DNA of 64,000 nt from NCBI GenBank assembly GCA_003569165.1, contig BGOI01000005.1:9560-73559 (forward strand). The letters are read 5' to 3'. The notes under the pieces are model-generated. The model made no database searches. It saw nothing but the letters and a program-made list of their open reading frames with translations, and was not told the DNA's origin. Below are positions 931 to 49,710 of the stretch, piece by piece (the stretch's first letter is position 1; each line of letters opens with the position of its first letter). The position numbers and the translations under genes are program-made. This stretch comes from Opitutia bacterium (GTDB taxonomy: Bacteria; Verrucomicrobiota; Verrucomicrobiia; Opitutales; UBA953).

Positions 931-1188
931 AGCGAAGGCGGGGCCTTCGCAGGGGGCATGCTGGCACGGTGACATTTGGGCATGGGGCCGAACACATCTC
1001 AACGGGAGACCGGGAACCGGATAGGATGCTGCGGTGTATCTTAGGTAGGGCCGAGCATCCTTGCTCGGCCGCGGACGACCAAGGATGGTCGTCCCTACCC
1101 ATTGCATCCCTTGTCAACTGGCCAACTGGCCAACCGGTCAACTTGGCTCTCCCCTTGTCACCGTGTCACCTTGCCCACGTGTCCCCTG
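931..1188. repeat. Composite intergenic repeat block: module C, half B, A1, D, inverted C
   Basis: Module C (GCGAAGG..CCTTCGCAGGGGGCATGCTGGCACGGTGACATTTGGGCATGGGG) at 931-987 and its inverted copy at 1148-1188 bracket GGGAGACCGGGAACCGGA (1003-1022), the A1 hairpin element (1045-1098) and CAACTGGCCAACTGGCCAACCGGTCAAC (1114-1142). All modules recur elsewhere in the window. Confidence 0.85.
1045..1098 (+). repeat. A1 element: 54-nt GTAGGG...CCCTAC double-hairpin REP-like repeat (copy 1 of 3)
   Basis: GTAGGG-CCGAGCATCCTTGCTCGG-CCGCGG-ACGACCAAGGATGGTCGT-CCCTAC. Near-identical copies at 40829-40882 (same orientation) and 39226-39279 (inverted). Confidence 0.9.
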
Positions 1189-1193
1189 ACCAA

Positions 1194-1715
1194 TCACTTA
1201 TTCCACGGCGCCCGGGCAATCAACAATCCCATGCCGCACCAATCGGTGACGCCGGCGAAGATCAGGCCGAAGCCGATGAAGCCGCTGAGGGCGTAGAAGC
1301 CGGGGTGGACATTGGCGCCGAGGAGCACGCCGCCGAAAACCAGCGTGCCGGCGGCGATGCGGACCTGGCGTTCAATCGAAATGACGCCGTTCGAAATCTT
1401 ATCCAAAGGTAGGCCAGCCTGAGCGCAGGCGGCGGTGCCACCGGTGACCACCAGAAGATGCAGGCCTTTGCCGGAGAGGCGTTCGGCTGCGACGGTGGCG
1501 CGCTTGCCAGCCGCGCAGAGGAGCACGACGTGTCGGGTGACATCGACGCCGCGGAGTTCGCCAACTTTGGCGGCGGTGACCAGTTCGAGCGGAAGATTGA
1601 TGGCGCCACGGACATGTCCGCCGCGGAATTCGGCAGGCGAACGAACGTCGAGCAGCAGTGAATTCCGCGCGCGTTCGGCTTCGATGTCGGACGCGGCAAT
1701 GGTCTCGATGGTCAT
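1194..1715 (-). CDS. Rhodanese-domain sulfurtransferase with C-terminal DUF2892-like membrane tail (YgaP-like)
   Basis: ORF of 173 aa. Rhodanese active-site loop CAAGKR. C-terminal hydrophobic tail GFIGFGLIFAGVTDWCGMG as in E. coli YgaP. Its ATG overlaps the leuA stop by 4 nt (ATGA). Confidence 0.8.
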   Translation of the reverse strand: MTIETIAASDIEAERARNSLLLDVRSPAEFRGGHVRGAINLPLELVTAAKVGELRGVDVTRHVVLLCAAGKRATVAAERLSGKGLHLLVVTGGTAACAQAGLPLDKISNGVISIERQVRIAAGTLVFGGVLLGANVHPGFYALSGFIGFGLIFAGVTDWCGMGLLIARAPWNK

Positions 1716-3376
1716 CGTTCGAGGCGATTCGCCGCGCTGACGAGGGCCTTGAGGCCGGCGAGTTCGATGTTCGCATCGACGCCGCAGCCCCAGACGGTGC
1801 GGCCGTCCTTGGACTGGAGCGAAACGTAGGCGGCGGCGGAAGATTCCGAGCCGGCGGTCAAAGCATGCGAGCGGTAATCCTTGAGGGAGAAGTTCGCCCA
1901 GCCCCTGGAATCGAGGGCGTGCACGAGGGCGCTGATCGGTCCGTTGCCTTCCCCGGTGAGGATGAGGTTTTTGCCGTCGTGACGGACCTCGGCTTCACAG
2001 CGCACGGTCTGCTTGTTGACGGGCGCGGAGCTGAACGAAACGAGTTCGAGCGGCGCGAAGACGTTGACGAAATTCTTCCGGAAGCAGTCATGGATCTCGG
2101 CGGGCGTGAGCTCCTTGCTGAGCTTGTCGGCGTGCTTGCCGATGAGGTTGCCGACTTCCGGGTGCATGAGCTTCGGGAGGTCGAAGCCGAACTCGCGGTC
2201 GAGCACGTAGGCGACGCCGCCCTTGCCGCTCTGCGAGTTGATGCGGATGATGGCCTCGTAGGAACGGCCGATGTCCATCGGGTCGATGGTGAGGTACGGG
2301 ACGTCCCAGAGGGCGTCGTGGCCGATCTTGCCGCGGCGGTCCATGCCCTTCTTGATGGCGTCCTGGTGGGAGCCCGAGAAGGCCGTGAAGACGAGGTCGC
2401 CGCCGTAAGGATGGCGGTCGTGCACGCTCATGCGGGTCACGCGCTCGTAGACCTCGCGGATGGCGCCGAGGTTGCGGAAGTCGAGGTGTGGGTCGATGCC
2501 GTGCGAGAACATGTTCAGCGCGACCGTGACGATATCGAGGTTGCCCGTGCGCTCGCCGTTGCCGAAGAGCGTACCTTCCACGCGGTCCGCGCCAGCCATC
2601 AGGCCGAGCTCGGTGGCGGCGACGCCGGTACCGCGGTCGTTGTGCGTGTGCAGGGAGACGATGGCCATCTCGCGGTTGCTGAGGTGACGGCAGAACCACT
2701 CGATCTGGTCGGCGTGCGTGTTCGGCGTGCCGGCTTCGACGGTGAGCGGGAGATTGAGGATGATCTTACGCTTGGCCGAAGCACCCCAGGCCTTCGCGAC
2801 CGCTTCGCAGACCTCGAGGGAGTAGTCGGGCTCGGTGAGCACGAACGTCCTCCGGACTGAACTCCAGCTGCCACTGCGTGTCGGGCAGGCGTCGGTGAGC
2901 TCGCGGATGAGCTTCGTGCCGGTGACGGCCATCTCGAGGACTTGCGCCTTCGAGAGATTAAAGACGATTTTCACGCTGGGCCGGATTGGTCGGCGTGTAG
3001 AGGTGGACGATCGCGCGACGGGCGCCCTTGAGGGAATCGATCGTGCGGCGGATGAGGTGTTCGCGGGCTTGGACGAGCACCTGCACCGAGACGTCCTCGG
3101 GGATGAGGTCCTTTTCGATGAGCTCGCGCGCGAAGGCGAACTCCGTGTCCGAGGCGGAGGGGAAGCCGATCTCGATCTCCTTGAAGCCGATGCGGCAGAG
3201 GGTCTGGAAGAGCTCGTGCTTCTCCGGCACGTTCATCGGGATGGCCAGGGCCTGGTTGCCGTCGCGGAGGTCGACCGAGCACCAGCGGGGGGCCTGCTCG
3301 ATGCGCGCGTCTGGCCAGCGGCGATCCGGGAGGCGGACGGTCTCGAAAGGGCGGTATTTCTGCCGGGGGATTCCAT
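1712..3376 (-). pseudogene. leuA: 2-isopropylmalate synthase (long-form LeuA), reading frame interrupted by four single-base homopolymer indels (probably assembly errors)
   Basis: ORFs 1712-2974 and 2958-3236 plus an unlisted N-terminal piece from ATG comp(3374-3376) join into LeuA ([66 protein letters not shown]). Frame breaks at G5 3365-3369 (-1), T4 2968-2971 (+1), GGG 2883-2885 (-1) and CC 2849-2850 (+1). 1665 nt equals 555 codons after correction. Confidence 0.9.
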
Positions 3377-3444
3377 GGCGGGCGAAGTGCGGATGGTGGG
3401 AAAGGAGGGGAGGGCTGGCGAGCGTGGGTTTGGGCTCCTAAAAG

Positions 3445-3479
3445 CAAAAAACCCACCCGGTAGTCCGGGTGGGTTTTTT
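3445..3479. terminator. Bidirectional intrinsic terminator
   Basis: AAAAAA-ACCCACCCGG-TAGT-CCGGGTGGGT-TTTTTT: a perfect 10-bp GC-rich stem flanked by an A-run and a T-run. Lies 23 nt downstream of the small basic protein gene (minus strand). Confidence 0.85.
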
Positions 3480-3501
3480 CGCAAAGGTGCGAGACCCGGA
3501 C

Positions 3502-3660
3502 TTAGGCGTCAGGCTTGGTCTTCGGAAGCTTGGTCACGCGCTTCAGGTCCTTGACGGTACCGCGCTTCTTGAGCAGTTCCACGCGTTCGAAGCGCTTGAG
3601 GACGTTACGCTTCACTCCGGAGGAGGAGGCGCTGGACTTGAAACTGTTGTGCTGGGTCAT
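3502..3660 (-). CDS. Small basic protein (52 aa, PVC-restricted family)
   Basis: Internal ATG of ORF 3502-3996: MTQHNSFKSSASSSGVKRNVLKRFERVELLKKRGTVKDLKRVTKLPKTKPDA. This matches my recollection of the small basic protein family restricted to Verrucomicrobia and Planctomycetes. Followed by a strong terminator. Confidence 0.6.
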   Translation of the reverse strand: MTQHNSFKSSASSSGVKRNVLKRFERVELLKKRGTVKDLKRVTKLPKTKPDA

Positions 3661-3767
3661 GGCCGTAAGGTGGGTGGAAGTTTTGAGAAAAGGGGTGGAA
3701 GGGGCGGGAGCAAGGGGAAAAGCGGGCGAAATGCCGACTTTGCCCCTTTCCCTGCCTCTTTCCTTGT

Positions 3768-5237
3768 TCAGGCGTGTTTCAGGATACCCTTCACCACGTG
3801 GCCTTCGACGTCGGTCAGGCGGAATTGGCGGCCCTGGTAGCGGAAGAGCAGGCCTTCGTGGTTGATCCCGAAGAGGTGCATCAGGGTGGCCTGCATGTCG
3901 TGGATATGGACCCGGTCCTTGGTGATGTTCCAGCCGAAGTCGTCGGTCGCTCCATGGACGTAGCCCGGCTTCACGCCGCCGCCGGCGAGCCACCAAGAGT
4001 AGGCGCGGCCGAAGTGGTCGCGTCCCTTGAAGCCAGTGCCTTGTTGGTTCTGGCCGAAGGGTGTGCGGCCGAATTCGCCACCCCAGACGACGAGCGTATC
4101 GTCGAGGAGGCCGCGCTGCTTGAGATCCTTGACGAGCGCCGCGCTAGCCTGGTCGGTATCGAGACACTGCTGCGCGAGCTGGCCGGTGGTAAGGTTGTTA
4201 TGCTGGTCCCAGCCGGAATGCATCAGCTGCGTGAACCGGACGCCACGCTCGGCGAGGCGGCGGGCGATGAGGCAGTTATTGGCGAAGGTGCCGGGCTTGA
4301 GGACTTCCGGGCCGTACATCTCGAGGACGGACTTCGGCTCGTTCTTGAAGTCGAGTAGGCCAGGGACCGACGTCTGCATGCGGAAGGCCATCTCGTATTG
4401 CGAGATGCGCGTGTCGATCTCGGGGTCGCCGACCTGACCGAAGTGCTCGCGGTTGAGCGCCTGCATGTCATCGAGCATCGTGCGACGCGCCTCGCGGCTG
4501 ACGCCAGCCGGATTGCCGACGTACGGGACCGGATCGCCGACGCCGCGGAAGCGGACGCCCTGATGCTTGCCGGGCAGGAATCCGTTGGACCAGTAGTGCT
4601 CGAAGAAGAGCTGGCCACAGGTCTTGGCAGCGTCGGAGGAGGTCATCACGACATACGAAGGCAGATCCTCGTTCATCGTGCCGAGACCGTAGGAGAGCCA
4701 GGCGCCCATCGAAGGACGGCCCGGAATCTGCGAGCCGGTCATGAAGAACGTCACGCCGGGGGCGTGGTTCACCGCCTCGGTGTTCATCGAGCGGACGACG
4801 CAGAGTTCGTCAGCGATGGCGCCGGTGAAGGGCAGCATCTCGCTCATCTCGATACCGCTGGAGCCCCATTTCTTGAAGGGCTTGATGGCGCCGACGCAGT
4901 TGTACTTCGCGTAGCCGCTCGACATCGAGGAGAGACGGGTATCGCCGCGCACGCTGGCGGGGATTTCCTGACCGGCCATCTTTTCGAGCAGCGGTTTGTG
5001 GTCGAAGAGGTCGACGTGCGAAGGGCCTCCGCCCTGCCAGAGGCAGATCATGCGCTTAGCCTTGGGGGCGAAGTGCGGCAGGCCAGGCAGACCGCCAATG
5101 GGCTTATTCGCGCCCTTGGCATCGCGGGCGAGGAGGGAGCCGAGGGCAACGGCGCCGATGCCTTGGACGCCGGCACTCAGGAAGCTGCGGCGAGTCAGGC
5201 GCTCGCGCCATTCGGAGGGAGAGAGTTCGAAGTCCAT
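3768..5237 (-). CDS. DUF1501 domain protein (alkaline-phosphatase/sulfatase-like), Tat-exported
   Basis: 489 aa. Twin-arginine leader TRRSFLSAG. DUF1501-type blocks GGGPSHVDLFD, GGEFGRTP, GRDHF. Starts 4 nt after the upstream PSCyt/DUF1553 gene. Confidence 0.85.
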   Translation of the reverse strand: MDFELSPSEWRERLTRRSFLSAGVQGIGAVALGSLLARDAKGANKPIGGLPGLPHFAPKAKRMICLWQGGGPSHVDLFDHKPLLEKMAGQEIPASVRGDTRLSSMSSGYAKYNCVGAIKPFKKWGSSGIEMSEMLPFTGAIADELCVVRSMNTEAVNHAPGVTFFMTGSQIPGRPSMGAWLSYGLGTMNEDLPSYVVMTSSDAAKTCGQLFFEHYWSNGFLPGKHQGVRFRGVGDPVPYVGNPAGVSREARRTMLDDMQALNREHFGQVGDPEIDTRISQYEMAFRMQTSVPGLLDFKNEPKSVLEMYGPEVLKPGTFANNCLIARRLAERGVRFTQLMHSGWDQHNNLTTGQLAQQCLDTDQASAALVKDLKQRGLLDDTLVVWGGEFGRTPFGQNQQGTGFKGRDHFGRAYSWWLAGGGVKPGYVHGATDDFGWNITKDRVHIHDMQATLMHLFGINHEGLLFRYQGRQFRLTDVEGHVVKGILKHA

Positions 5238-10293: not shown

Positions 10294-10899
10294 ATGATCG
10301 TCTCCCTCCGCGGCAAACTCATCGAAGCCGGCGTCCTGCGCGTCGTCATCGAGTCGTCGGGCGTGGGCTACGAGGTCAACGTCCCCGTCACGACCGCGGA
10401 GCGTCTCCCGAAACTCGGTGCGGAAGTCTTCCTGCTCATCCATCACGTCTTCCGCGAAGACGGCCAGGCGCTCTACGGCTTCGCCGTCGCGGAAGAGCGT
10501 GAGTTCTTCAAGTTGCTCGTCGAGAAGGTGTCGGGCGTCGGCCCCAAGATGGCGCTGAACATCCTCAGCCGCCTCGCGTTGCCTATTCTGCGCGACGCGA
10601 TTCTGCGCGGGGACGTCGCTTTACTTTCCCAGTGTCCTGGCATCGGCAAGAAGACCGCCGAACGCCTCGTCATGGAGCTTAAGGATAAGGTCGGCCTCGA
10701 AGGTGCCGGCGCCACGGTTGTCTCGACGTTAGCGGCGGCGAGCGCCGTCGCGCCTACGCCGGCTTCCGACGCCCTGGCCGCGCTCATCGCGCTCGGCTTC
10801 AAGCCCGTCGACGCCGATAAGGGTGTGCGCACCGCGCTCACGAAGCTCGGCGCTGGCGCGACCGCCGATCAGTTGGTGAAGGCGGCGCTCGGGCGCTGA
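10294..10899 (+). CDS. ruvA: Holliday junction branch migration protein RuvA
   Basis: 201 aa. MIVSLRGKLIE..GVGYEV OB domain, two HhH motifs (VSGVGPKMAL, CPGIGKKTAERL), C-terminal domain III. Confidence 0.9.
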   Translation: MIVSLRGKLIEAGVLRVVIESSGVGYEVNVPVTTAERLPKLGAEVFLLIHHVFREDGQALYGFAVAEEREFFKLLVEKVSGVGPKMALNILSRLALPILRDAILRGDVALLSQCPGIGKKTAERLVMELKDKVGLEGAGATVVSTLAAASAVAPTPASDALAALIALGFKPVDADKGVRTALTKLGAGATADQLVKAALGR

Positions 10900-10900
10900 A

Positions 10901-11175
10901 GCGCCCTCGCGAGGGGACACGTGGGCACGTTGACACGTGGACAAGGGGGACAAAAAGTTGACCCGTTGATCAGTTGGCCGGTTGGCCAGAGGGAATGAAG
11001 GTAGGGGCGCCACTGCGTGGCGTCCGTTCGCGGTGGCATGTGGGTAATGAGTCCGGTCTTGGCTAAGACCCGATGACTTCTGGCTTCGGTCTCAAACGGA
11101 CGCGACGCAGTCGCGCCCCTACCCAAGGCAGCTGTCAACCGCCACCCGCCACCCGGGGCTGCCACCCGCCACCCG
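10901..11175. repeat. Composite repeat block: C, inverted D, A2 REPIN-like doublet, inverted E
   Basis: GCGCCCTCGCGAGGGGACACGTGGGCACGTTGACACGTGGACAAGGGGGA (10901-10950). Inverted CAACTGGCC-type module (10956-10989). GTAGGGG doublet (11001-11122). CCGCCACCCGCCACCCGGGGCTGCCACCCGCCACCC (11139-11175). Confidence 0.85.
11001..11122. repeat. REPIN/MITE-like doublet: two inverted GTAGGGGCGC(C/G)ACTGCGT(G/C)GCGTCCGTT arms around a 66-nt spacer
   Basis: Left arm is GTAGGGGCGCCACTGCGTGGCGTCCGTT. Right arm is AACGGACGCGACGCAGTCGCGCCCCTAC. A second doublet with the same arms but an unrelated spacer lies at 33490-33602. Confidence 0.85.
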
Positions 11176-11279
11176 AGAATGGGTGCGTGAGGACGGCACG
11201 TGGTACTATTCCTACCTCTATGCAAGCAAACCACTTGCCCGCGTGTCACGGCACCGGCACCTCCTTCGCCGTCACCGGA

Positions 11280-11633
11280 CTATGGGCCCTCGCCGAGGTA
11301 CCACAAGTACAACAACAGGAGTCCGCAGAACGATACGAACAGCTGGAGCAGGAGACTTCCGATGATGCAGAGCCAAAACGGGACTGGTTTTGGGCGGAAG
11401 TTAGCGACGGAGAAGCGGACGTTGAGTGCCATCAAGACGCACTGGGCGATGATCAGGCAAACGGCAGACAACCCGGGGCGCTCTCTTGTCGGCATGAGTG
11501 ACCAGAAAATGAATGGTGCCGCCACATTGAGCGTGCCCCACTCGGCCAGCAGCCGATACCAGCGGGAAGGTTTGCCTGTCTCAGGCGTCGTGGATGCGGA
11601 GGCAGGTTGGACGCCCGGAGGTTGGCTGGACAT
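11280..11633 (-). CDS. Hypothetical small membrane protein (117 aa)
   Basis: Three hydrophobic helices (LNVAAPFIFWSLM, GLSAVCLIIAQCVLMAL, FWLCIIGSLLLQLFVSFCGLLLLYLWYL). C-ending codon preference like neighbouring genes. No family recognised. Sits alone inside 1.1 kb of repeats. Confidence 0.45.
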   Translation of the reverse strand: MSSQPPGVQPASASTTPETGKPSRWYRLLAEWGTLNVAAPFIFWSLMPTRERPGLSAVCLIIAQCVLMALNVRFSVANFRPKPVPFWLCIIGSLLLQLFVSFCGLLLLYLWYLGEGP

Positions 11634-11690
11634 GAATCAAGCGTGGCCCCATGTTTCGGCCTGGCAATCAACGGTTAAGAGACCGTGTTT

Positions 11691-12027
11691 GGCGCCCTCG
11701 CGAGGGGTAAGTGGGCAAGGTGACACGTGGACAAGGGGGATTAACTCAAAGGGAGACTGGGAGCCGGATGTGATTCTGCGGGCATTGGTTAGGGCGGGCT
11801 CTCCGAGCCCGCCGTTGAGCCGGATGAGGTGCGAAACTCTCGTGACGAACGGACGGCTCGGAGAGCCGTCCCTACCTGCGAAGGCTTCGCCTTCGAGGGG
11901 ACATGCTGGCAAGGTGACACGTGGGCGCGGGGAATTGTATCTCCCTCGCCAACTGGCCAACCAATCAACTGGTCAACTTAGTTGCCCTCTGGCCCACGTG
12001 TCACCGTGCCAACTTGCCCCCTTACCC
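11691..12027. repeat. Composite repeat block: C, half B, GTTAGGG/CCCTAC doublet, C, D, inverted C
   Basis: C at 11691-11740. GGGAGACTGGGAGCCGGA at 11745-11769. Doublet GTTAGGGCGGGCTCTCCGAGCCCGCC ... GGACGGCTCGGAGAGCCGTCCCTAC at 11788-11875. C at 11878-11933. CAACTGGCCAACCAATCAACTGGTCAAC at 11949-11978. Inverted C at 11985-12027, abutting the dapB stop. Confidence 0.85.
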
Positions 12028-12771
12028 TTACTTCAGTCCCAACACATCTTCCATGCCGTACAGGCCGGCGGGCTGGCTCTTCAGCCAGCGGGCGGCGCGG
12101 ACGGCGCCACGCGCGAAGATCTCGCGATTGGAAGCCTTGTGGGTGAGTTCGAGGCGTTCGCCTTCGGCGGCGAAAAGGACCGTGTGGTCGCCCACGACGT
12201 CGCCGCCGCGGATGGCGTGCACGCCGATCTCATCGAGCGGGCGTTCGCCGACGAGTCCGTCGCGGCCGTGCTTGAGGGCTTCCTTGGCGAGCTTGCGCTC
12301 TTCGAGGAGAATCTTGAGGAGCGTCTCGGCGGTGCCGGAAGGCGCGTCCTTCTTGAGGTTGTGGTGCATCTCGAGCACTTCGACGTCCCAGCGGCCGGCG
12401 TCGGCGAGCGAGCGGGCGGCCTGGCGGACAAGCGCGTTGAGGAGCGTGACACCGACGGAGTAGTTGCCGGCCCAGACGACCGGAAGGCCCTGGATGGCAG
12501 CGGTGATCGCGGCCTTCTCTTCGGCCGTGTGGCCGGTGGTGCCAATCACGAGCGGCTTCTGGTGCTGGGCGCAGAGCTGCGCGACCGCGAGGGTCGCGGA
12601 GTGGTACGAGAAATCGATGACCACGTCGGCGGCACCGATGTGCGCGGAGAGGTTATCGCCCTGGTCGACGCCGGCGGCGATGACGGCCTTCTCGGAGGCG
12701 GCGACGTTAACAATGGCGAGGCCCATGCGGCCCTTGGCACCATTGAGGAGAATGCGGATGGGTTGGCTCAT
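12028..12771 (-). CDS. dapB: 4-hydroxy-tetrahydrodipicolinate reductase
   Basis: MSQPIRILLNGAKGRMG nucleotide-binding N-terminus. EMHHNLKKDAPSGTA signature. ATG 12771 preferred over the longer ORF-track start. Overlaps the dapA stop by 4 nt. Confidence 0.9.
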   Translation of the reverse strand: MSQPIRILLNGAKGRMGLAIVNVAASEKAVIAAGVDQGDNLSAHIGAADVVIDFSYHSATLAVAQLCAQHQKPLVIGTTGHTAEEKAAITAAIQGLPVVWAGNYSVGVTLLNALVRQAARSLADAGRWDVEVLEMHHNLKKDAPSGTAETLLKILLEERKLAKEALKHGRDGLVGERPLDEIGVHAIRGGDVVGDHTVLFAAEGERLELTHKASNREIFARGAVRAARWLKSQPAGLYGMEDVLGLK

Positions 12772-13700
12772 CGGAGGGAGGCGAGGGTGGCGTCGGCGAC
12801 CTTCTCGACGAGAAGGCGGTTGGCTTCGGACATCTCGCAAAGGGGCAGGCGGACTTCATCGGAGCGGATGATCCCGGCGCGCATCATACAATGCTTCACG
12901 GGTACCGGGTTCGGTTCGACGAAGAGCGTCTTGAAGATGTCGGCGAGCTTATCGTGCAGGACCTTGGCTTCGGCGAACTGCTGCGTGCGCGCGAGCTGGG
13001 CGAGCTTGGCGACCGGGCCGGGGATGAAGTTCGACGCGACGGAGATGATGCCTTGGCCGCCGACTTGGGCGAAGGGCAGGGTCAGGGAGTCGTCGCCGCT
13101 GAGGACGATGAATTCCGGATCGGACTCGCGCACGAGGCGCGCGGCCTTGTCGACTTGACCGCCGGCTTCTTTGATGCCGATGATGTTCGGATACTTCTGG
13201 CGGAGGCGCAGGGTGGTCTCGACGGTAATCTCGATGCCACAGCGGCCCGGGATGGAATACAGGATAATCGGCTTCGCGGTGGATTCGGCGAGCAAGGCGA
13301 AGTGACGGAAGAGACCTTCCTGGCTGGGCTTGTTGTAATACGGGGCCACGAGCAGGAAGGCGTCGGCACCGGCTTCGTCGGCACGCTTCGTGAGGTCGAG
13401 GGCTTCGGTCGTGGCGTTGGAGCCCGTGCCGGCCATGACCGGGACGCGGCCAGCGGAGAACTCGACCGTCTTGCGGATGACTTCGATGTGCTCGTCGTAG
13501 TCGAGGGTGGGGGACTCGCCAGTGGTGCCGACGGCGACCAGGCCGTCGATGCCAGCTGCAATCTGGAATTCGACCAGCTTCTTCAGGTCATCCCAGGCCA
13601 CCGCTCCATTGAGGAAGGGGGTGACCAAAGCCGTATGGGCTCCCACGAAAGCGCGGGGGCCGAAAGGGCGGCGAGAGGAGTTGGAACCGGTCGAAGACAT
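12768..13700 (-). CDS. dapA: 4-hydroxy-tetrahydrodipicolinate synthase
   Basis: From ATG 13700: ..AHTALVTPF.., GTTGESPTL, GIKEA (Schiff-base Lys region). The N-terminal 65 aa of the ORF-track model is an Arg/Pro-rich read-through and is rejected. Confidence 0.9.
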   Translation of the reverse strand: MSSTGSNSSRRPFGPRAFVGAHTALVTPFLNGAVAWDDLKKLVEFQIAAGIDGLVAVGTTGESPTLDYDEHIEVIRKTVEFSAGRVPVMAGTGSNATTEALDLTKRADEAGADAFLLVAPYYNKPSQEGLFRHFALLAESTAKPIILYSIPGRCGIEITVETTLRLRQKYPNIIGIKEAGGQVDKAARLVRESDPEFIVLSGDDSLTLPFAQVGGQGIISVASNFIPGPVAKLAQLARTQQFAEAKVLHDKLADIFKTLFVEPNPVPVKHCMMRAGIIRSDEVRLPLCEMSEANRLLVEKVADATLASLR

Positions 13701-15702: not shown

Positions 15703-16337
15703 GCCGCTGACTTCGCCCGGAGTCGACGCAGTCCGAGGAAGCCGAACGCCAAGGCCGCTGCGACGATGAGCATCGTGACGCCGCAGAGAATCAGCATGCG
15801 CAGTCCGAGGTGATCTTTCGCTTCATGCGCTTGGATGAGCGGCGATTCATCGCCCGCGACCATCATTACCCAGCGGGCCTTGGCGCCGGGCTTCGTTTCG
15901 TCGACCAGCCAGAGGAGCACCGTGTGCGGGCTTTCGTCTGGCAGGCGGAGGACGAAATTGCGGGGGTCGGGCGTCCAGCGCCATTCGGCGCTCTCGAGCC
16001 GGTAGTCCTTCGCCAGCTCTTCAGGCGTGTGCTGGAAGGGTGAGTCAGTCTCGAGCTTCGTGGCTGACGAGAAGTCCGGCGTACCCGCCGCCTGCGTGAG
16101 CGGGAAGAGGTCCTTGCCGGTTGAGATCGTGAAGAGCCCTTCGGCGACTTTCGCCAATTCGGCGCGCTCGCGGATGTTGAAGTTCGCCTCCAGGTCCGCC
16201 GTCACCTTGAGCGAGCACGCCCCATCGGCATGCATCGTCAGGCGCGCCAGGAGGACTTCGCCGTTATGGGCGCAGACGAACAAGGGGAGCACGAGGGCTC
16301 CCCAGGTCAGGACCAGCTGGCGCAACGCGCGGATCAC
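15699..16337 (-). CDS. Hypothetical membrane-anchored protein
   Basis: GTG 16337 overlaps the stop of the upstream propeller gene (GTGA). N-terminal signal/TM (LVLTWGALVLPLFVCA) and a C-terminal TM plus RRLR anchor. No family recognised. Confidence 0.55.
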   Translation of the reverse strand: MIRALRQLVLTWGALVLPLFVCAHNGEVLLARLTMHADGACSLKVTADLEANFNIRERAELAKVAEGLFTISTGKDLFPLTQAAGTPDFSSATKLETDSPFQHTPEELAKDYRLESAEWRWTPDPRNFVLRLPDESPHTVLLWLVDETKPGAKARWVMMVAGDESPLIQAHEAKDHLGLRMLILCGVTMLIVAAALAFGFLGLRRLRAKSAA

Positions 16338-17347
16338 TTGCGATTCCAGCGCAGCACGCGACCGAAGGTATTCCACTCGGTCTCGAGGATGTTGCCGTCG
16401 TTATCGAAAGTGATGCCGTGGGGCGAGGTGACGACGCCTTCGCGCCACTCGGCCGGGGGAACCCTAGGGGTATTCGTTTCCTTCCTGATACCCTTGTCCT
16501 TGTCATCGGCGATGCGGTCATTGGAGCCGAGCTCGGCGAGCATCTTGCCTTCCTTGTTCCAGACCGAGACGCGTCCTGCGATCTCGGCGACGCACATCAG
16601 TTCGCCATGGAAGGAGGCGGAGGAGGGATTACGCAGGCCAGTGTTGGCGATCATCGTCGGGTTGGCGCCGTCGAGGTCGACGTGGAACATACGGTTGTTG
16701 CCGCGGTCGAGGCAGAGCAGACGGGCTGGGGAGAAGCGGGTGTCGACGAAGACCTTGTGGGTGTTGGCGAAGCCTTTGCCGTCCACGATCTGCGTGGGGC
16801 CGCCGAAGACCGACTTGAACTTGCCGTCCTTGTCGAAGACGAAGACCCAGCTCTTGCCGTAGCCGTCGACGATGTAGATGTCGCCATTCGGAGCCACGTC
16901 GCAGCTCGTGAGCTTAAGGGCGTTGACGGATTTGCCCGCCTTGTCCTTGGCCTTACCCTTGTCGGCCGGGAAGGCGTCCGACTTGATTTCCATGACGACG
17001 GTGCCGTCGAGCTTAGCCTTGATGAAGCGCTGCTCGCCGAGCACTGCGCCGTAGAGGAACTCGCCTTCAGCGGACTTGCGGACCACGAAGCCGTGGAGCG
17101 ACATCGGCAGGGCGAGGGTCTTCACGTACTTGCCGTCCTTGCCGTAGACTTGGATGCCGGCGTCCTTTTCCTGGACGCTGACGTAGATAAGGCCGGCGGA
17201 GTCGACGGCGATCTCGCCGTGGCCGTTGCCGATCTGGGCCTTGCCGGGAGGCGTGCCGAGGAAGTTCGGCAGCAGTTCATATTTCACTTCGGCAGCTTGG
17301 GCGAGGGAGCACACGGTGAGGAGGGCGAGGAGGCGGAGGGTGGGCAT
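16334..17347 (-). CDS. Secreted NHL / peptidyl-alpha-hydroxyglycine-lyase-like beta-propeller protein
   Basis: 337 aa. Signal peptide MPTLRLLALLTVCSLAQA. Blades such as AGLIYVSVQ, NGDIYIVDGYG and NNRMFHVDLDG. Confidence 0.65.
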   Translation of the reverse strand: MPTLRLLALLTVCSLAQAAEVKYELLPNFLGTPPGKAQIGNGHGEIAVDSAGLIYVSVQEKDAGIQVYGKDGKYVKTLALPMSLHGFVVRKSAEGEFLYGAVLGEQRFIKAKLDGTVVMEIKSDAFPADKGKAKDKAGKSVNALKLTSCDVAPNGDIYIVDGYGKSWVFVFDKDGKFKSVFGGPTQIVDGKGFANTHKVFVDTRFSPARLLCLDRGNNRMFHVDLDGANPTMIANTGLRNPSSASFHGELMCVAEIAGRVSVWNKEGKMLAELGSNDRIADDKDKGIRKETNTPRVPPAEWREGVVTSPHGITFDNDGNILETEWNTFGRVLRWNRK

Positions 17348-17491
17348 GGGGGTGGTTAAGGGGTGGGGGTAGGGAGAGGGGTAGGGGTAGGGACAACAGG
17401 AGGCAAATGGATTTCGGAAAATGGCTTTCTGATTCTACCTACGCTCTTGGGTTGAATCTCCTATCCCCACCCCTATCCCTACCCCAACCCC
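17348..17491. repeat. Inverted pair of (GGGGTA)n-type G modules in a divergent promoter region
   Basis: GGGGGTGGTTAAGGGGTGGGGGTAGGGAGAGGGGTAGGGGTAGGG (17348-17392) and CTCCTATCCCCACCCCTATCCCTACCCCAACCCC (17458-17491). The C-rich strand faces each flanking start codon. Confidence 0.85.
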
Positions 17492-17499
17492 TAAAGCAT

Positions 17500-18117
17500 A
17501 TGACCTCCCTCCGTCTCCTCGCGGCCTTCGCCGCCCTCGTCGTTTCGGCCTCTGCCGCCGACGTCAAACTTGAGTCCGCCTTCAACGGCAAGGACCTCGC
17601 CGGCTGGAAGACCTCCGGCCCTGACGCCTTCTGGACCGCCGCTGACGGCGTCCTCACGGGCGTCAACGATCTCGCCTTCAAGGATTACAAGAAGGGCAAT
17701 ATGCTCTACACCGAGAAGTCCTATCAGGACGTCGTCATCGAGTGCGAAGTCCGCTTCAGCGGTGAGATCGACAGTGGTATCATGGTGCGCCGCGATGCCG
17801 CCGGTAAGAAGGATATCCAGATGCAGATTGGCGTCTCCCGCTCCCTGAAGAAGGACATGACCTGCACGTTCTACGTCGGCAAGTATCCCGAAGCCGGCTG
17901 GGCCCCGAAGGTCCCCGCGCTCTGGAAGAACAACGAGTGGAACAAGGTCCGCTTCCAGGCCAAGGGCGACACCTACACCGTCTGGCTCAACGGCGAGCAG
18001 GTCTCGAACTACGTCGACGCCGGTTACCCCATGGCCGCTCCGGTGGGACTCCAGGTGCACGGCGGCGTGAAGATGAAGGTCGAATACCGCAACATCGCCA
18101 TCGGCGAGATCAAGTAA
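17500..18117 (+). CDS. DUF1080 (3-keto-disaccharide hydrolase-like) domain protein, secreted
   Basis: ATG 17500 gives MTSLRLLAAFAALVVSASA. FNGKDLAGWK, DGVLTG, WNKVRFQAKGDTYTVWLNG and LQVHGG..VEYRNIAI fit the DUF1080 pattern. Confidence 0.75.
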   Translation: MTSLRLLAAFAALVVSASAADVKLESAFNGKDLAGWKTSGPDAFWTAADGVLTGVNDLAFKDYKKGNMLYTEKSYQDVVIECEVRFSGEIDSGIMVRRDAAGKKDIQMQIGVSRSLKKDMTCTFYVGKYPEAGWAPKVPALWKNNEWNKVRFQAKGDTYTVWLNGEQVSNYVDAGYPMAAPVGLQVHGGVKMKVEYRNIAIGEIK

Positions 18118-28221: not shown

Positions 28222-28440
28222 GGGTAGGGTTAGGGGTAGGGGTTGGGGTAGGTAATATTGGCAGGGACAGCACCACGTGCTGTCCTTGCTTGTTTGGGTA
28301 GGGTCGGGACCGCGTCACGACATAGCCTTTCGTTTCGGGTGGCGGGTGGCAGCCCCGGGTGGCAGGTGGCGGGAATAGTTTGAGCAGGGAAGGGTGGTTT
28401 GACTCAACCACCCCCAACCCCTACCCCTATCCCTACCCCT
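28222..28440. repeat. Composite repeat block: G, A4 hairpin, A3, E, inverted G
   Basis: GGGTAGGGTTAGGGGTAGGGGTTGGGGTAGG (28222-28252). GGACAGCACCACGTGCTGTCC (28265-28285). GTAGGGTCGGGACCGCGTCACGACATAG (28298-28325). GGGTGGCGGGTGGCAGCCCCGGGTGGCAGGTGGCGGG (28337-28373). CCACCCCCAACCCCTACCCCTATCCCTACCCC (28408-28440). Confidence 0.85.
28265..28295 (+). terminator. Likely intrinsic terminator of the four-gene operon (the A4 repeat hairpin)
   Basis: GGACAGCAC-CAC-GTGCTGTCC followed by TTGCTTGTTT, 48 nt after the stop at 28217. Confidence 0.6.
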
Positions 28441-33306: not shown

Positions 33307-33639
33307 AGGGAGGGCGGGGGGTGGGTCAAGGGAGATTAAAGGGAGGACTCGAGGGCCCGAGGGCCGGAGGGCCAGAGGGGTTGATTCGTTGATCAGAGGG
33401 CCGGGTGGCTGGAAAGGGGGTGGGTGGGGGTAGTTTTGTTGATCGGTTGTTCAGAGGGCCAATTGGCCGGTCTGGAGGCCAAAGAATGGGTAGGGGCGCG
33501 ACTGCGTCGCGTCCGTGGGCGGACGGATTTGGGAATACGCAAAAGCTTGCCCGAATCAGGCAAGCTAAGAGGCGAACGGACGCGACGTCGTCGCGTCCCT
33601 ACCAAGAGACAGAGGACAGCACGTGGTGCTGTCCCTACC
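33307..33639. repeat. Composite repeat block: G-rich/F, degenerate D, A2 REPIN-like doublet, A4 hairpin
   Basis: GAGGGCCCGAGGGCCGGAGGGCCAGAGGGG (about 33351-33380). GTTGATCAG / GGCCAATTGGCC D-like words (33381-33475). Doublet at 33490-33602. GGACAGCACGTGGTGCTGTCC (33614-33634) abutting the glnS stop. Confidence 0.85.
33490..33602. repeat. REPIN/MITE-like doublet (second copy of the A2 arms)
   Basis: GTAGGGGCGCGACTGCGTCGCGTCCGT ... AACGGACGCGACGTCGTCGCGTCCCTAC. The spacer is unrelated to the 11001-11122 copy and holds its own 8-bp hairpin AGCTTGCC-CGAATCA-GGCAAGCT. Confidence 0.85.
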
Positions 33640-35335: not shown

Positions 35336-36700
<1,365 letters not shown>

Positions 36701-36710
36701 GGGCGAAATA

Positions 36711-36817
36711 GAGGGATGGAGGGCTGGAGGGCCGGAGGACCAGAGGAGGGCCTGAGGGCAGGCGGGCCGGAAGGGAAGGCGTAAAGGGGTCAGGGGGCAG
36801 GGCAAGAAGGGAGGGAC
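36711..36817. repeat. F-type (GGAGGGC/GGAGGAC)n purine-rich block in the gltX leader
   Basis: GAGGGATGGAGGGCTGGAGGGCCGGAGGACCAGAGGAGGGCCTGAGGGCAGGCGGGCCGGAAGGGAAGG... The C-rich strand is the sense strand of gltX. Confidence 0.75.
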
Positions 36818-39070: not shown

Positions 39071-39086
39071 GCGCCAAACTTCGAAC

Positions 39087-39330
39087 GAGGGGGCACGTGC
39101 GCAAGGTGACACGGGGACATGGGGAAGGCTGAACTCAAAGGGAGACCGGAAACCGGAATGTATGCTGCGGACATTTTCCCCGCTAATTATCCGATTTCCG
39201 GTCTCCCTTTGAGTTTTGTCTCGAGGTAGGGATGACCATCCTTGGTCGGCCGCGGTCGAGCAGGGATGCTCGACCCTACCCGATGCAGCACTGTCGTGAC
39301 GCGGTACTGCCCCTACCTCGTCCTTGCCCC
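39087..39330. repeat. Composite repeat block: C, B inverted pair, inverted A1, A3-like
   Basis: GGGGGCACGTGCGCAAGGTGACACGGGGACATGGGGA (39087-39125). CTCAAAGGGAGACCGGAAACCGGA ... TCCGATTTCCGGTCTCCCTTTGAG (39134-39213). Inverted A1 (39226-39279). TGTCGTGACGCGGTACTGCCCCTACC (about 39291-39317). Confidence 0.85.
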
Positions 39331-39339
39331 CTCGCGACT

Positions 39340-40772: not shown

Positions 40773-40796
40773 CTTTACGCGAACCAGTTCGCGAGG

Positions 40797-40974
40797 GATA
40801 GGGACAGGGGTAGGGTTGGGTAATATTGGTAGGGTCGAGCATCCCTGCTCGACCGCGGCCGACCAAGGATGGTCGGCCCTACCTCGAGATAGAACGCAAA
40901 GGGAGACTGGGGACCGGATGATTGGCTGGGGTGCATGGCCGCAGCATTCTTTCCGGTTTCCGGTCTCCCTTTGC
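40797..40974. repeat. Composite repeat block: G, A1, B inverted pair
   Basis: GGGATAGGGACAGGGGTAGGGTTGGG-TAATATTGG (40797-40829). A1 at 40829-40882. GCAAAGGGAGACTGGGGACCGGA ... TTTCCGGTTTCCGGTCTCCCTTTGC (40896-40974) abutting the MFS stop. Confidence 0.85.
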
Positions 40975-40975
40975 T

Positions 40976-42306: not shown

Positions 42307-42523
42307 GGTGGTAGCGGTTGGCGGTTGTGTAAGGTGAAAGGCCAGGCACTGCCTCGGAAAATTCAGGTGGCGGGTGGCAGCCCCGGGTGGCGGGTGGCAG
42401 GCCGTTGCGAGGCGCGATGCAGTCGCCTCAAACGGTTCTATGTCGTGACGCGGTCCCGACCCTACCCATCCAATGCAGGCTTCTAGGCTAGGTTTTCATC
42501 CTAGCCGCCAACCGCTATCCGCT
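42307..42523. repeat. Composite repeat block: inverted H, E, A2-like hairpin, inverted A3, H
   Basis: GGTGGTAGCGGTTGGCGGTTG (42307-42327). GGTGGCGGGTGGCAGCCCCGGGTGGCGGGTGGCAGG (42365-42400). GAGGCGCGATGCAGTCGCCTC (42408-42429). CTATGTCGTGACGCGGTCCCGACCCTACCC (42439-42467). GCCGCCAACCGCTATCCGC (42506-42523). Confidence 0.85.
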
Positions 42524-43232: not shown

Positions 43233-43239
43233 TTTGAAA

Positions 43240-43485
43240 GGGGTAGGGGTGGGGGTAGGGGTAGGAAAAGACAGGGAGGGGAGGAGGGCAAGGTAATGGA
43301 GGGCACGAGGGCCGGAGGACAGGAGGACACGAGTGCCGGAGGACACGATGACACGAGTGCCAGAAATTGTCGGATAAAACAGGTCAGTGGTCGGAAATCG
43401 TGAACCTTCACATCCGCGTTCTCTGGCCCTCGTGGCATCCGGTCCTCGTGCCCTCGCTTGACTAACCGCCAACCGCTATCCGCAG
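43240..43485. repeat. Composite repeat block in a divergent promoter region: G, F, inverted F, H
   Basis: GGGGTAGGGGTGGGGGTAGGGGTAGG (43240-43265). GGAGGGCACGAGGGCCGGAGGACAGGAGGACACGAGTGCCGGAGGACACGATGACACGAGTGCC (43273-43362). TCTGGCCCTCGTGGCATCCGGTCCTCGTGCCCTCGC (43419-43456). CCGCCAACCGCTATCCGC (43463-43485). Confidence 0.85.
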
Positions 43486-43553
43486 ACACCGTTCGTGGCT
43501 TTTGGCTTTCCTCTGTCATCTGTCATCGGTCATCTTCATCTATCTTCCCACCC

Positions 43554-49493: not shown

Positions 49494-49710
49494 CGAGGGC
49501 TCGAGGATAGGAGGACACGAGGGCCGGAGGGCAGGAGGACCCCAGAATATGAGGGCACGAGGGCCTGATTATAAGAGGACCGGAGGGCAGGTTGGCCCGA
49601 GGGCACGAGATAATGCCACAGCGTGACCTCCTATGGCCCCAATCTGTGTAGCTCTCTAACTCATGTCTCCCGCCCTCGTGACCACGAGTCCTCGGGTCAA
49701 CGGGCCCTCC
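49494..49710. repeat. F-type repeat block with inverted arm (pyrB leader / trpA trailer)
   Basis: CGAGGGCTCGAGGATAGGAGGACACGAGGGCCGGAGGGCAGGAGGACC..GAGGGCACGAGGGCC..GAGGACCGGAGGGCAGG..CCCGAGGGCACGAG (49494-49607). Inverted arm CTCCCGCCCTCGTGACCACGAGTCCTCGGG..GGGCCCTCC (49667-49710). Confidence 0.8.

Follow-up and report, generated by a model that had tools for sequence, protein, structure and literature searches.

BIME-like intergenic mosaics of GTAG-headed REP hairpins and inverted short-repeat arrays in an Opitutales genome

The 1,128-nt gap between ruvA and dapB lies in a 64,000-nt stretch of the genome of a freshwater member of the Opitutales (Opitutia bacterium, contig BGOI01000005.1, positions 9,560 to 73,559), which was analysed as a whole and is called the window here. 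Two clusters of short repeats occupy parts of this gap, and they are listed in Table 1 together with the other clusters of the window. A preliminary description of this DNA had the gap almost entirely built from repeat modules, but these are present only at ~10900-11217 and 11692-12022, and 11218-11691 (the middle ~510 nt) is unique sequence holding a conserved 117-aa gene. The reading frame has a GC3 of 0.75, a large protein search returned metagenome homologues that are 79-96% identical, and tblastn gave no match to it in the related loci; its predicted product is hydrophobic and membrane-like. On the ruvA side, arrays C and D (10912-10989) are an inverted copy of the 78-nt D+C' block at 1110-1187 (a prime marks inverted orientation), the T2 doublet is orthologous in the related loci L019 and L060, and array E is 97% complementary to 28335-28372 and 42363-42398. 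On the other side, the last group of modules forms a compact C…C' palindrome which ends 2 nt short of the dapB stop codon.

Table 1 Repeat modules and mosaics of the window, with the non-repeat gene of the ruvA-dapB gap.
Position	Strand	Feature	Remarks
951..1190	.	mosaic C – B half – T1 REPIN (1044-1099) – D' – C'	fold z-score -6.0
10901..10950	+	palindrome GCGCCCTCGCGAGGG, then array C (8-nt period, G-rich)	starts 2 nt past the ruvA stop codon
10956..10989	+	array D, G-rich orientation	GTTGRYC units, 8-nt period
11000..11123	.	T2 REPIN-like doublet	two inverted REPs (GGTAGGGGCGCSACTGCGTSGCGTCCGT), heads outward, 68-nt spacer
11139..11176	-	array E, C-rich orientation	7-nt period, GGTGGCG units
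11181..11217	-	decayed inverted T4-type REP	…GGACGGCACGTGGTACTATTCCTACC
11280..11633	-	117-aa ORF	non-repeat; divides the gap into two mosaics
11691..11766	+	palindrome + array C (11704-11740) + half hairpin B (11745-11766)	
11788..11876	.	T2-like REP doublet	left head degenerate (GTTAGGG), right head CCCTACC
11878..12026	.	small hairpin, then C (11898-11934), D' (11949-11978), C' (11985-12020)	
17348..17493	.	(GGGGTA)n … (CCCCTA)n inverted pair	divergent genes; arms stop few nt before start codons
28218..28447	.	mosaic G – T4 – T3 – E – hairpin – G'	spans the full stop-to-start-codon gap
33343..33639	.	mosaic F/D-like arrays – T2 REPIN (33489-33603) – T4' (33604-33639)	
36711..36781	+	single F array, 8-nt period	C-rich in leader sense of minus-strand gene 35336-36628
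39085..39320	.	mosaic C – B/B' hairpin – T1 REPIN (39225-39280) – T3'	kept in 4 species; fold z-score -10.1
40794..40975	.	mosaic G – T1 REPIN (40828-40883) – B/B' hairpin	kept in 3 species
42363..42522	.	mosaic E – T2-like hairpin – T3' – H' (7-nt units)	
43239..43541	.	mosaic G – F arrays … F' – H' – (TCTGTCA)n	flanking genes diverge
49494..49710	.	F arrays … F' inverted pair	start 1 nt from start codon

All eight module families reported previously, A to H, were found again at the positions given for them or at most ~20 nt away, the offsets arising because the short palindrome before array C had been counted in. Only one copy was discarded, namely module H at 42307, which is a 3-mismatch match within a coding region and probably due to chance; exact copies of H occur only at 42507 and 43468. 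The intergenic nature of the modules was confirmed by blastn comparison of the window with itself and with 648 kb of related loci, in which all segments with at least three short matches (14 of 14) were intergenic. The non-coding share of the window is only ~10%, and ~45% of it is made of these elements. The motif GGTAGGG occurs 30 times in the window, against 4.4 +/- 2.5 in shuffles, and 26 of these copies are intergenic; arrays with periods of 6, 7 and 8 nt were detected by TRF at the expected sites. The array at 17460-17493 and the REPs at 39225-39317 are only seemingly inside ORFs and lie upstream of the true start codons. The same words recur, among the matches listed, in about 25 related Opitutales genomes, and a genome scan found at least 109 8-kb blocks with matches in Opitutales genomes. 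Since the related loci were all gathered around T1 REPs, this sample is biased. Assembly artefacts, or fortuitous similarity of G+C-rich low-complexity DNA, may be regarded as already refuted. The H match at 42307 is of the kind that shuffles do produce; however, the observed counts were never reached in shuffles, the repeats are restricted to the small non-coding part of the window, the genomes sharing the words were independently assembled and include long-read contigs, and the stem covariation described below is perfect. The mosaics match no known RNA family at Rfam gathering thresholds, three tRNAs being the only matches in the window, and consensus scans of 33-50 kb, which were uninformative, gave no excess of promoters or terminators over shuffles.

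Module A had been treated as one module, but the REP hairpins grouped in it, all headed by GTAG, fall into at least four families and often form inverted doublets (REPINs). In all families, the head is GGTAGGG, which contains GTAG and forms the 5' foot of a 7-13-bp hairpin. DNA of T1, T2, T4 and T5 folds with z-scores of -2.3 to -7.6, and T3 folds more weakly. Two stem positions of T1 are variable, and they are complementary in each of the 175 units collected from the window and about 25 genomes (96 G-C, 79 C-G, none unpaired), using a search pattern that permitted every combination. At the one position checked for a preference between RNA- and DNA-level hairpins, the mismatches (32 T·G vs 53 C·A) had no clear bias. 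The window contains three 56-nt T1 doublets with heads outward and three T2 doublets, and neighbouring REP pairs in the related loci are head-outward in 189 cases and head-inward in 34. No RAYT gene is present within the 64-kb window. A Y1_Tnp protein (30.9 bits, cut-off 23) is encoded at 3292-3828 of the related locus L080; this locus shares its MAG with L019 and L075, both ~89% identical to the window. Among solved structures, the best match of the protein is to E. coli TnpA-REP (4ER8, E = 6e-6), the HUH motif and the catalytic Tyr are aligned, and the gene has GGTAGGG REPs on both sides. Binding and cleavage by TnpA-REP need the GTAG head (PMC3479197), and GTAG REPs, with coexisting families and dimers, were reported in 2013 to be very abundant and highly enriched in Opitutus terrae (Di Nocera et al. 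2013, PMC3733652). Judged by its sequence, the relative's gene would encode a cognate-type RAYT for the REPs described here. The earlier label of a BIME-like mosaic is apt, with GTAG-headed REP hairpins and doublets at the core and a putative REP-flanked RAYT in a close relative.

The remaining modules are arrays with periods of 8 nt (C, D and F), 7 nt (E and H) or 6 nt (G), and an ~80-nt hairpin (B). Their units include GGGGTA, GGTGGCG, GAGGGCCG, GTGGGCAA, GTTGGCC, AGCGGTT and others. D and inverted C constitute one block of 78-85 nt in a single 8-nt register, seen at 1107-1191 and 11942-12026 and, inverted, at 10912-10989. Array E alone does not fold (z = +0.6), and it is therefore an array and not a palindrome. 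The arrays sit 1-15 nt from start or stop codons, and of the window's 13 canonical G4 motifs, 11 are intergenic. In the related loci, periods of 7 and 8 nt predominate, the heptamer units make up more than 20 families and the octamer units more than 40, and 75-80% of the arrays fall in DNA left free by a crude coding mask, which takes up 76% of the sequence. We also considered the units as degenerate GTAG heads (G-N-N-G), but the likeness is clear only for (GGGGTA)n; for the other units the scheme is too flexible, and it is not claimed.

All mosaics of the window share a strict polarity which was absent from the preliminary description: they open with G-rich arrays or REP heads and close with the C-rich complements of these. 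Transitions from G to C ('+-') number 9 in the window, and there is none from C to G ('-+'). In the related loci, the corresponding counts are 33 and 2 for arrays only, and mixed islands read '+…-' in 32 cases and '-…+' in one. Module strings follow the same rule, and exceptions exist (2 of 35 array transitions, and strings such as H' T1 T1'). With this polarity, each mosaic becomes one large composite palindrome, and folding brings its two ends together: the z-scores are -5 to -10 for mosaics, compared with -1.5 to -4.5 in other intergenic regions. A chirality of palindromes and an orientation rule relative to genes are mathematically identical for any gene arrangement, and thus the two are inseparable by counting. 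With regard to the genes themselves, an SD-like motif precedes only 3 of 36, the -30..-1 region contains 40% C and 19% G, and the 40 nt past stop codons contain 34% G and 26% C.

Module order differs between loci, as had been claimed (for example, C B B' T1 T1' T3' vs G T4 T3 E G'). The further claim that modules shuffle independently is correct in that order varies, but it is too strong, because the polarity is obeyed, some modules travel as blocks (D with inverted C; the G array with a REP head), and the 39.1-kb and 40.8-kb mosaics are kept module for module across 3-4 species. Single modules are gained, lost or replaced between orthologous loci of related species. For example, REP types and numbers differ between conserved flanks at the 0.9-kb locus in five species, and changes at orthologous sites include the presence or absence of D, a half or a full copy of B, and T2 in place of T1. 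The ruvA-dapB locus also differs between species in REP type and number and in single modules. There, the outer arms are C…C' in the window and F-like…F-like' in L019, and the inner REPIN is common to both, so simple nested insertion fails as an explanation.

Such differences bear on a quite unlikely alternative, in which a few larger, non-autonomous MITE-like transposons have decayed into the mosaics, with C…C', F…F' and G…G' as terminal inverted repeats and the modules as fragments. The outer arms are inverted repeats that are 79-88% complementary, and both arms of L019 are of another type than those of the window, as if a whole element had been exchanged. Blocks recur as well, namely D+C' (78-85 nt) and B'+REPIN (103 nt), and a 220-nt composite is present in tandem duplicate in L039. 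However, a consistent full-length element is lacking: islands of the related loci contain dozens of module strings, most module types also occur singly, and orthologous loci differ by single modules. The ruvA-dapB gap and the 39-kb mosaic had no match to plasmids or phages by blastn, and no transposase with matching ends was found in the 648 kb of related loci. The gene inside C…C' of L060 encodes a predicted 820-aa protein with a signal-peptide-like N-terminus, which we judged from its sequence to be a non-transposase. Neither the insertion of D nor the surroundings of B showed a clear target-site duplication.

It is also rather unlikely that the arrays are non-mobile regulatory sequence, made and kept in place by selection, and that the REPs merely share permissive gaps with them. 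Candidates for such a role are G-quadruplex or C-rich motifs, or periodic protein-binding sites, which would act on termination, mRNA stability or SD-independent translation. This explanation agrees with the close contact of the arrays with start and stop codons, with leaders that are generally C-rich and SD-less, and with the intergenic G4 motifs of the window. Parallels are also available, since the G-rich GGGAATC array of Xanthomonas stands ~28 nt from the 5' neighbouring ORF (PMC4692102) and TAACTGA arrays of Beggiatoaceae stand just upstream of start codons (PMC4679880). However, the units are very diverse, and one binding protein is hard to reconcile with so many heptamer and octamer families. 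Furthermore, arrays at orthologous sites are missing or exchanged for unrelated units, and the same arrays adjoin genes of unrelated function.

We consider it probable that the mosaics unite a BIME-like REP/RAYT system with inverted arrays of short repeats, including the movement and polarity steps proposed as follows. First, two classes of elements, the REPs in at least four families and the arrays C to H with hairpin B, would jointly make up the mosaics. By analogy with E. coli TnpA-REP, the genome most likely has, at another place, a gene for a RAYT-type HUH/Y1 transposase that copies and moves the REPs as single-stranded DNA, and this enzyme would contact the hairpin and the GTAG head. The RAYT is proposed as the mover of the REPs only, and neither a RAYT role for arrays C to H and hairpin B nor their mobility is part of the claim. 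The arrays, mostly inverted pairs that bracket REPs, probably grew by slippage or duplication and probably spread through recombination between mosaics. Second, whichever strand is read, the G-rich arm lies 5' and the C-rich arm 3'. Transcription from a neighbouring gene into the mosaic would put both arms in one RNA, which could form a long hairpin that may serve as a 3'-end barrier or stabiliser, and an outward transcript with its start within the mosaic would carry only a C-rich, G-poor leader, the usual type for the SD-less genes of this organism. Selection on leaders and 3' ends may have filtered the surviving orientations, and the mosaics would pass from ancestor to descendant and last across species, while single modules are gained, lost or replaced locally.

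A bolder and unlikely version takes the polarity further: the uniform chirality would be functional and a general design of Opitutales intergenic DNA, with the mosaics as symmetric bidirectional insulators. Transcripts from either side would be stopped or stabilised by G-arm/C-arm hairpins or G-quadruplexes, and unstructured C-rich, SD-less leaders would be supplied to transcripts starting within the mosaic. As a further step of this version, the arrays would be made by the RAYT machinery, with (GGGGTA)n as tandem copies of the REP head GGTAGGG.

Compared with known systems, the combined REP and array mosaic favoured here is a richer variant of E. coli/Xanthomonas-type mosaics and no new kind of system. 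The hallmarks of E. coli BIMEs are Y/Z REPs, S/L/s/l/r motifs and an IHF site, and classical BIMEs also have about ten motifs; the much richer vocabulary claimed for the present mosaics is a matter of degree only. REP clusters in alternating orientation, interleaved with short conserved motifs and placed in intergenic DNA, often at 3' ends, are common to both. However, inspection by eye shows no relationship between the present sequences and the E. coli motifs, and we call the mosaics BIME-like and not BIMEs. Moreover, what accompanies the REPs here is a set of tandem arrays with 6-8-nt units and a long hairpin, and each cluster is a polar composite palindrome, often spanning the whole gap including 5' leaders. 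Intergenic mosaic elements of Neisseria, Correia elements and pneumococcal BOX are likewise modular, with a small set of units in variable order. Their units are 50-150 nt long with other sequences and without GTAG hairpins, and they are set apart by description. The mosaics resemble REP/REPIN-RAYT systems in the REP-flanked Y1/HUH gene, here in a relative, and in persistence across species, but differ from those with a RAYT in that the window itself is without one.

The closest likeness in REP form is provided by the GTAG REPs of O. terrae (PMC3733652), which likewise carry GTAG in a head at the 5' foot of an imperfect, short hairpin, have several extragenic families per genome with high copy number, and form head-outward dimers with spacers that are very short or 60-70 nt and conserved. 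Here, in contrast, the head is extended to the invariant GGTAGGG, and T1-T4 were set beside the published families GTAG-17 to GTAG-20 by description. As for the arrays, G-rich heptamers such as (GGGAATC)n occur in Xanthomonas and also in Nostoc, with ~70 convergent inverted pairs per Xanthomonas genome (Rehm et al. 2015, PMC4692102). Both they and the arrays described here are intergenic, G4-prone tandem arrays of ~7-nt units in convergent pairs with the same chirality, and in both the length and presence vary between species; cyanobacterial STRR heptamers are named alongside. Unlike the Xanthomonas arrays, those described here have many unit families with periods of 6, 7 and 8 nt and not one dominant heptamer, their units depart from GGGAATC / GGGGAYT, and they systematically bracket REPs. 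TAACTGA direct repeats of Beggiatoaceae, Cyanobacteria and Bacteroidetes also stop a few nt before start codons (MacGregor 2015, PMC4679880), but they consist of a single unit, are almost never inverted, and are described without REP association. The preliminary description knew of no account of such DNA, and in this it was only partly right: GTAG REPs (2013) and convergent heptamer arrays (2015) were already published, but we found no description in the literature of their combination in Opitutales.

For practical work on these genomes, gene callers are misled by the repeats, as two ORF starts in the window were over-extended across them, and short-read assemblies are probably broken by them. 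The combination of REP/RAYT with many array families could help to explain the origin and persistence of the cyanobacterial and Xanthomonas arrays, which have long been unexplained, and if the arrays were RAYT-made, a domesticated transposase would be building regulatory DNA. The polarity rule offers a simple handle, because a flipped mosaic should alter expression if the rule reflects function. Given that these elements make up nearly half of the non-coding DNA and contact many start and stop codons, they are likely to influence where transcripts end and where SD-independent translation starts, and this in a widespread group of freshwater Verrucomicrobia.

The repeats in this window (G+C about 64%) are real, and the BIME-like mosaic of the preliminary description is borne out in a more specific form, a mosaic of the REP type known from REP-associated tyrosine transposases (RAYTs), in which inverted arrays of short period are joined to the REPs and a strict polarity applies. 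First, the module families were recovered at the claimed positions by a repeat finder and by TRF, and the head GGTAGGG occurs 30 times in the window, against 4.4 ± 2.5 in shuffles. Second, when the window was compared with itself and with 648 kb of related loci (8-kb blocks from related genomes, gathered around T1 REPs and given L-numbers here), all 14 segments with at least three short matches were intergenic, as had been proposed; intergenic DNA makes up about 10% of the window. One supposed copy of module H, at 42307, is a 3-mismatch match within coding sequence. Two seeming overlaps between arrays and ORFs vanish with the true starts: longest-ORF starts run too far across arrays or REPs at 17407-17499 and 39232-39337, and the true starts are likely the ATG at 17500, which a signal peptide follows, and a position near 39338, as placed by aligning three relatives. 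In public genomes, orthologous stretches show 86-95% identity and come without exception from freshwater Opitutales/Opitutae (Verrucomicrobia) MAGs; exact-sequence searches with RuvA and DapB gave no identical recorded protein.

Module A, previously treated as one module, is a set of REP elements of four distinguishable types, each with GGTAGGG followed by a hairpin. They fold well as single-stranded DNA, T3 more weakly. When T1 units were gathered with a pattern leaving two stem positions free, these were complementary in 175 of 175 units (96 G-C, 79 C-G), which strongly indicates that it is the hairpin that is being maintained. Among the other modules, TRF assigned a period of 8 nt to arrays C, D and F and of 7 nt to E, H and a TCTGTCA array at 43512, and resolved G as (GGGGTA)n; D and inverted C share one 8-nt register and recur together as a 78-85-nt block. 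Module B is a single arm of an approximately 80-nt hairpin (fold z = -8.3). The (GGGGTA)n arrays at 28222-28266 and 40794-40834 hold the REP head in tandem and lead to the next REP via a common linker, GGGTAATATTGG[T/C]AGGG, which suggests that array and REP head are related. Two larger composites were also observed, an inverted repeat of 103 nt with 88% complementary arms (B' and T1 doublet versus T1 doublet and B, a prime marking an inverted copy) that encloses a glucuronyl-esterase gene and tRNA-Arg and resembles composite-element ends, and, in a related MAG, a tandemly duplicated composite of about 220 nt made of a T1 doublet and a (CAGGTY)n…(RACCTG)n hairpin.

REP types and positions of features in the window and in related blocks (L-numbers)
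Feature	Consensus or description	Position
REP T1	GGTAGGGnnGAsCATCCyTGsTCG	
REP T2	GGTAGGGGCGCGACTGCGTCGCGTCCGT	
REP T3	GGTAGGGTCGGGACCGCGTCACGACA	
REP T4	GGYAGGGACAGCACCACGTGCTGTCC	
T1 doublets	head-outward, 56 nt	1044, 39225, 40828
T2 doublets	spacers ~35-70 nt	11000, 11788, 33489
ruvA	Pfam; flanks the finding	10294-10899 (+)
dapB	Pfam; flanks the finding	12028-12840 (-)
Mosaics of ruvA-dapB gap		10900-11217, 11692-12022
ORF in gap centre	117 aa	11280-11633 (-)
Inverted repeat	103 nt	39178-39280 vs 40828-40930
Small ORFs, L110 gap	107 aa and 116 aa	1640-1963 and 2426-2776
Gene, L060 gap	820 aa	~1560-4012 of reverse complement
Duplicated composite, L039	~220-nt unit	3104-3540
Y1_Tnp, second type		L040 1-654 (-), L095 7011-7982 (+)

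The polarity was absent from the preliminary description. With G-rich arrays and GGTAGGG coded as '+' and their complements as '-', all mosaics read '+…+ -…-', and the transitions in the window were '+-' in nine cases and '-+' in none. In the related blocks, which were gathered around T1, the arrays alone gave 33 '+-' versus 2 '-+', the mixed islands gave 32 '+…-' and 1 '-…+', and the module strings agree with this G-first order. Each mosaic therefore forms a composite palindrome whose G-rich arm is 5' on whichever strand is read, and in RNA folding the outer arms pair end to end with z from -5 to -10, whereas other intergenic regions score -1.5 to -4.5. The same rule can be stated relative to genes, as gene-sense G-rich sequence after stop codons and gene-sense C-rich sequence before start codons, and the array often adjoins the codon, lying about 1-15 nt from a stop or start at 10899, 12028, 17347, 17500, 28217, 28448, 43231 and 49492. 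The start-side half fits a general trait of the genome, C-rich leaders without SD: an SD-like motif is found in 3 of the 36 genes of the window, and positions -30 to -1 before start codons hold 40% C and 19% G (36 starts, e.g. 16334-17347(-), 18363, 28448, 43554 and 61433). The 40 nt past stop codons hold 34% G and 26% C. G-quadruplexes may also contribute, as the window has 13 canonical G4 motifs, 11 of which fall between genes; some of the 13 belong to none of the listed modules, such as the one at 3692-3726, and further sites include 36748-36815.

The gap between ruvA and dapB had been described as built almost entirely from modules, and it consists instead of two mosaics around a unique centre of 510 nt. 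This centre carries an ORF for a hydrophobic, membrane-like product, with a coding-like GC3 of 0.75 and metagenome homologues 79-96% identical. The same gap holds two similar small ORFs in L110, each bracketed by mosaics, and in L060 a gene for a protein with an N-terminus resembling a signal peptide; the gap thus acquires genes within mosaics. An inner T2 doublet and spacer are common to the window, L019 and L060, and the outer arms, C…C' in the window and in L060, are F-like…F-like' in L019. This exchange of both outer arms is not explained by simple nested insertion. At other loci, the 39.1-kb (C-B/B'-T1 doublet-T3') and 40.8-kb (G-T1 doublet-B/B') mosaics retain each of their modules in 3-4 species that differ by about 10% in the adjoining coding sequence. 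At the 0.9-kb locus, the five species compared differ by single modules: the D array is there in some and missing in others, B is either a half or a full copy, and a T2 unit can stand in place of the T1 doublet; in one species the module set is wholly different. Modules therefore change individually, inside the polarity rule.

The vocabulary belongs to the clade and not to this window alone, since modules occur throughout related Opitutales blocks. Scanning species-representative genomes with the T1 pattern matched at least 109 8-kb blocks, and among the matches listed essentially all T1-bearing blocks came from Opitutales MAGs; T2-T4 and B-H are also present in related blocks. There, TRF periods of 7 and 8 are commonest, unit families number dozens, and 75-80% of arrays fall outside a crude coding mask that spans 76% of the DNA. 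A few REP-bearing blocks (L013, L014/L040, L083, L100) are in MAGs titled Polynucleobacter, Akkermansia muciniphila, Klebsiella or Aquidulcis. Since L040 matches the window at 87.6% identity over 1 kb, such labels or bins are probably incorrect.

No Y1_Tnp or RAYT-type gene was found within the 64-kb window, and three Y1_Tnp (IS200-like) ORFs in related blocks exceed the Pfam cut-off. For the one in L080, from the same MAG as L019 and L075 (those about 89% identical to the window), the closest solved relative is E. coli TnpA-REP (PDB 4ER8), with the HUH motif and catalytic tyrosine aligned. GGTAGGG REPs lie on either side of this gene, which by its sequence context is the canonical RAYT arrangement. 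In E. coli, a 5' GTAG is needed for TnpA-REP binding and cleavage (PMC3479197). A second Y1_Tnp type, in L040 and L095 (HUH motif NHFHLLV, YIHLNPVRAGIV), is bordered by GGGGTCAGGCCGTACC… hairpins, not GTAG REPs; the L040 gene lies about 4.4 kb past the stretch that corresponds to the left end of the window.

The mosaic combines known kinds of element and is not a new system. The preliminary description knew of no account of it; the REP component is already known, as O. terrae has been reported to be strongly enriched in GTAG REPs, in several families that coexist and with close head-to-head and tail-to-tail dimers (Di Nocera et al., PMC3733652). For the combined Opitutales mosaic, no paper was found in the mainly open-access literature searched. 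Xanthomonas (GGGAATC)n arrays are 89-93% intergenic, lie on average 28 nt from the ORF on their 5' side and form about 70 convergent inverted pairs per genome (Rehm et al., PMC4692102); their chirality is the same as that of the mosaics here. Heptamer arrays immediately 5' of start codons, in a setting with few ribosome-binding sites, have also been reported (MacGregor, PMC4679880). We propose that REPs would be moved as single strands by RAYT transposition, that arrays would lengthen through slippage or duplication and be exchanged via recombination between mosaics, and that the only orientations to survive would be those yielding a C-rich leader and, at 3' ends, a hairpin between G-arm and C-arm. 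We consider the G-first polarity, and how well it suits the SD-less C-rich leaders of this genome, the most promising aspects of the finding.
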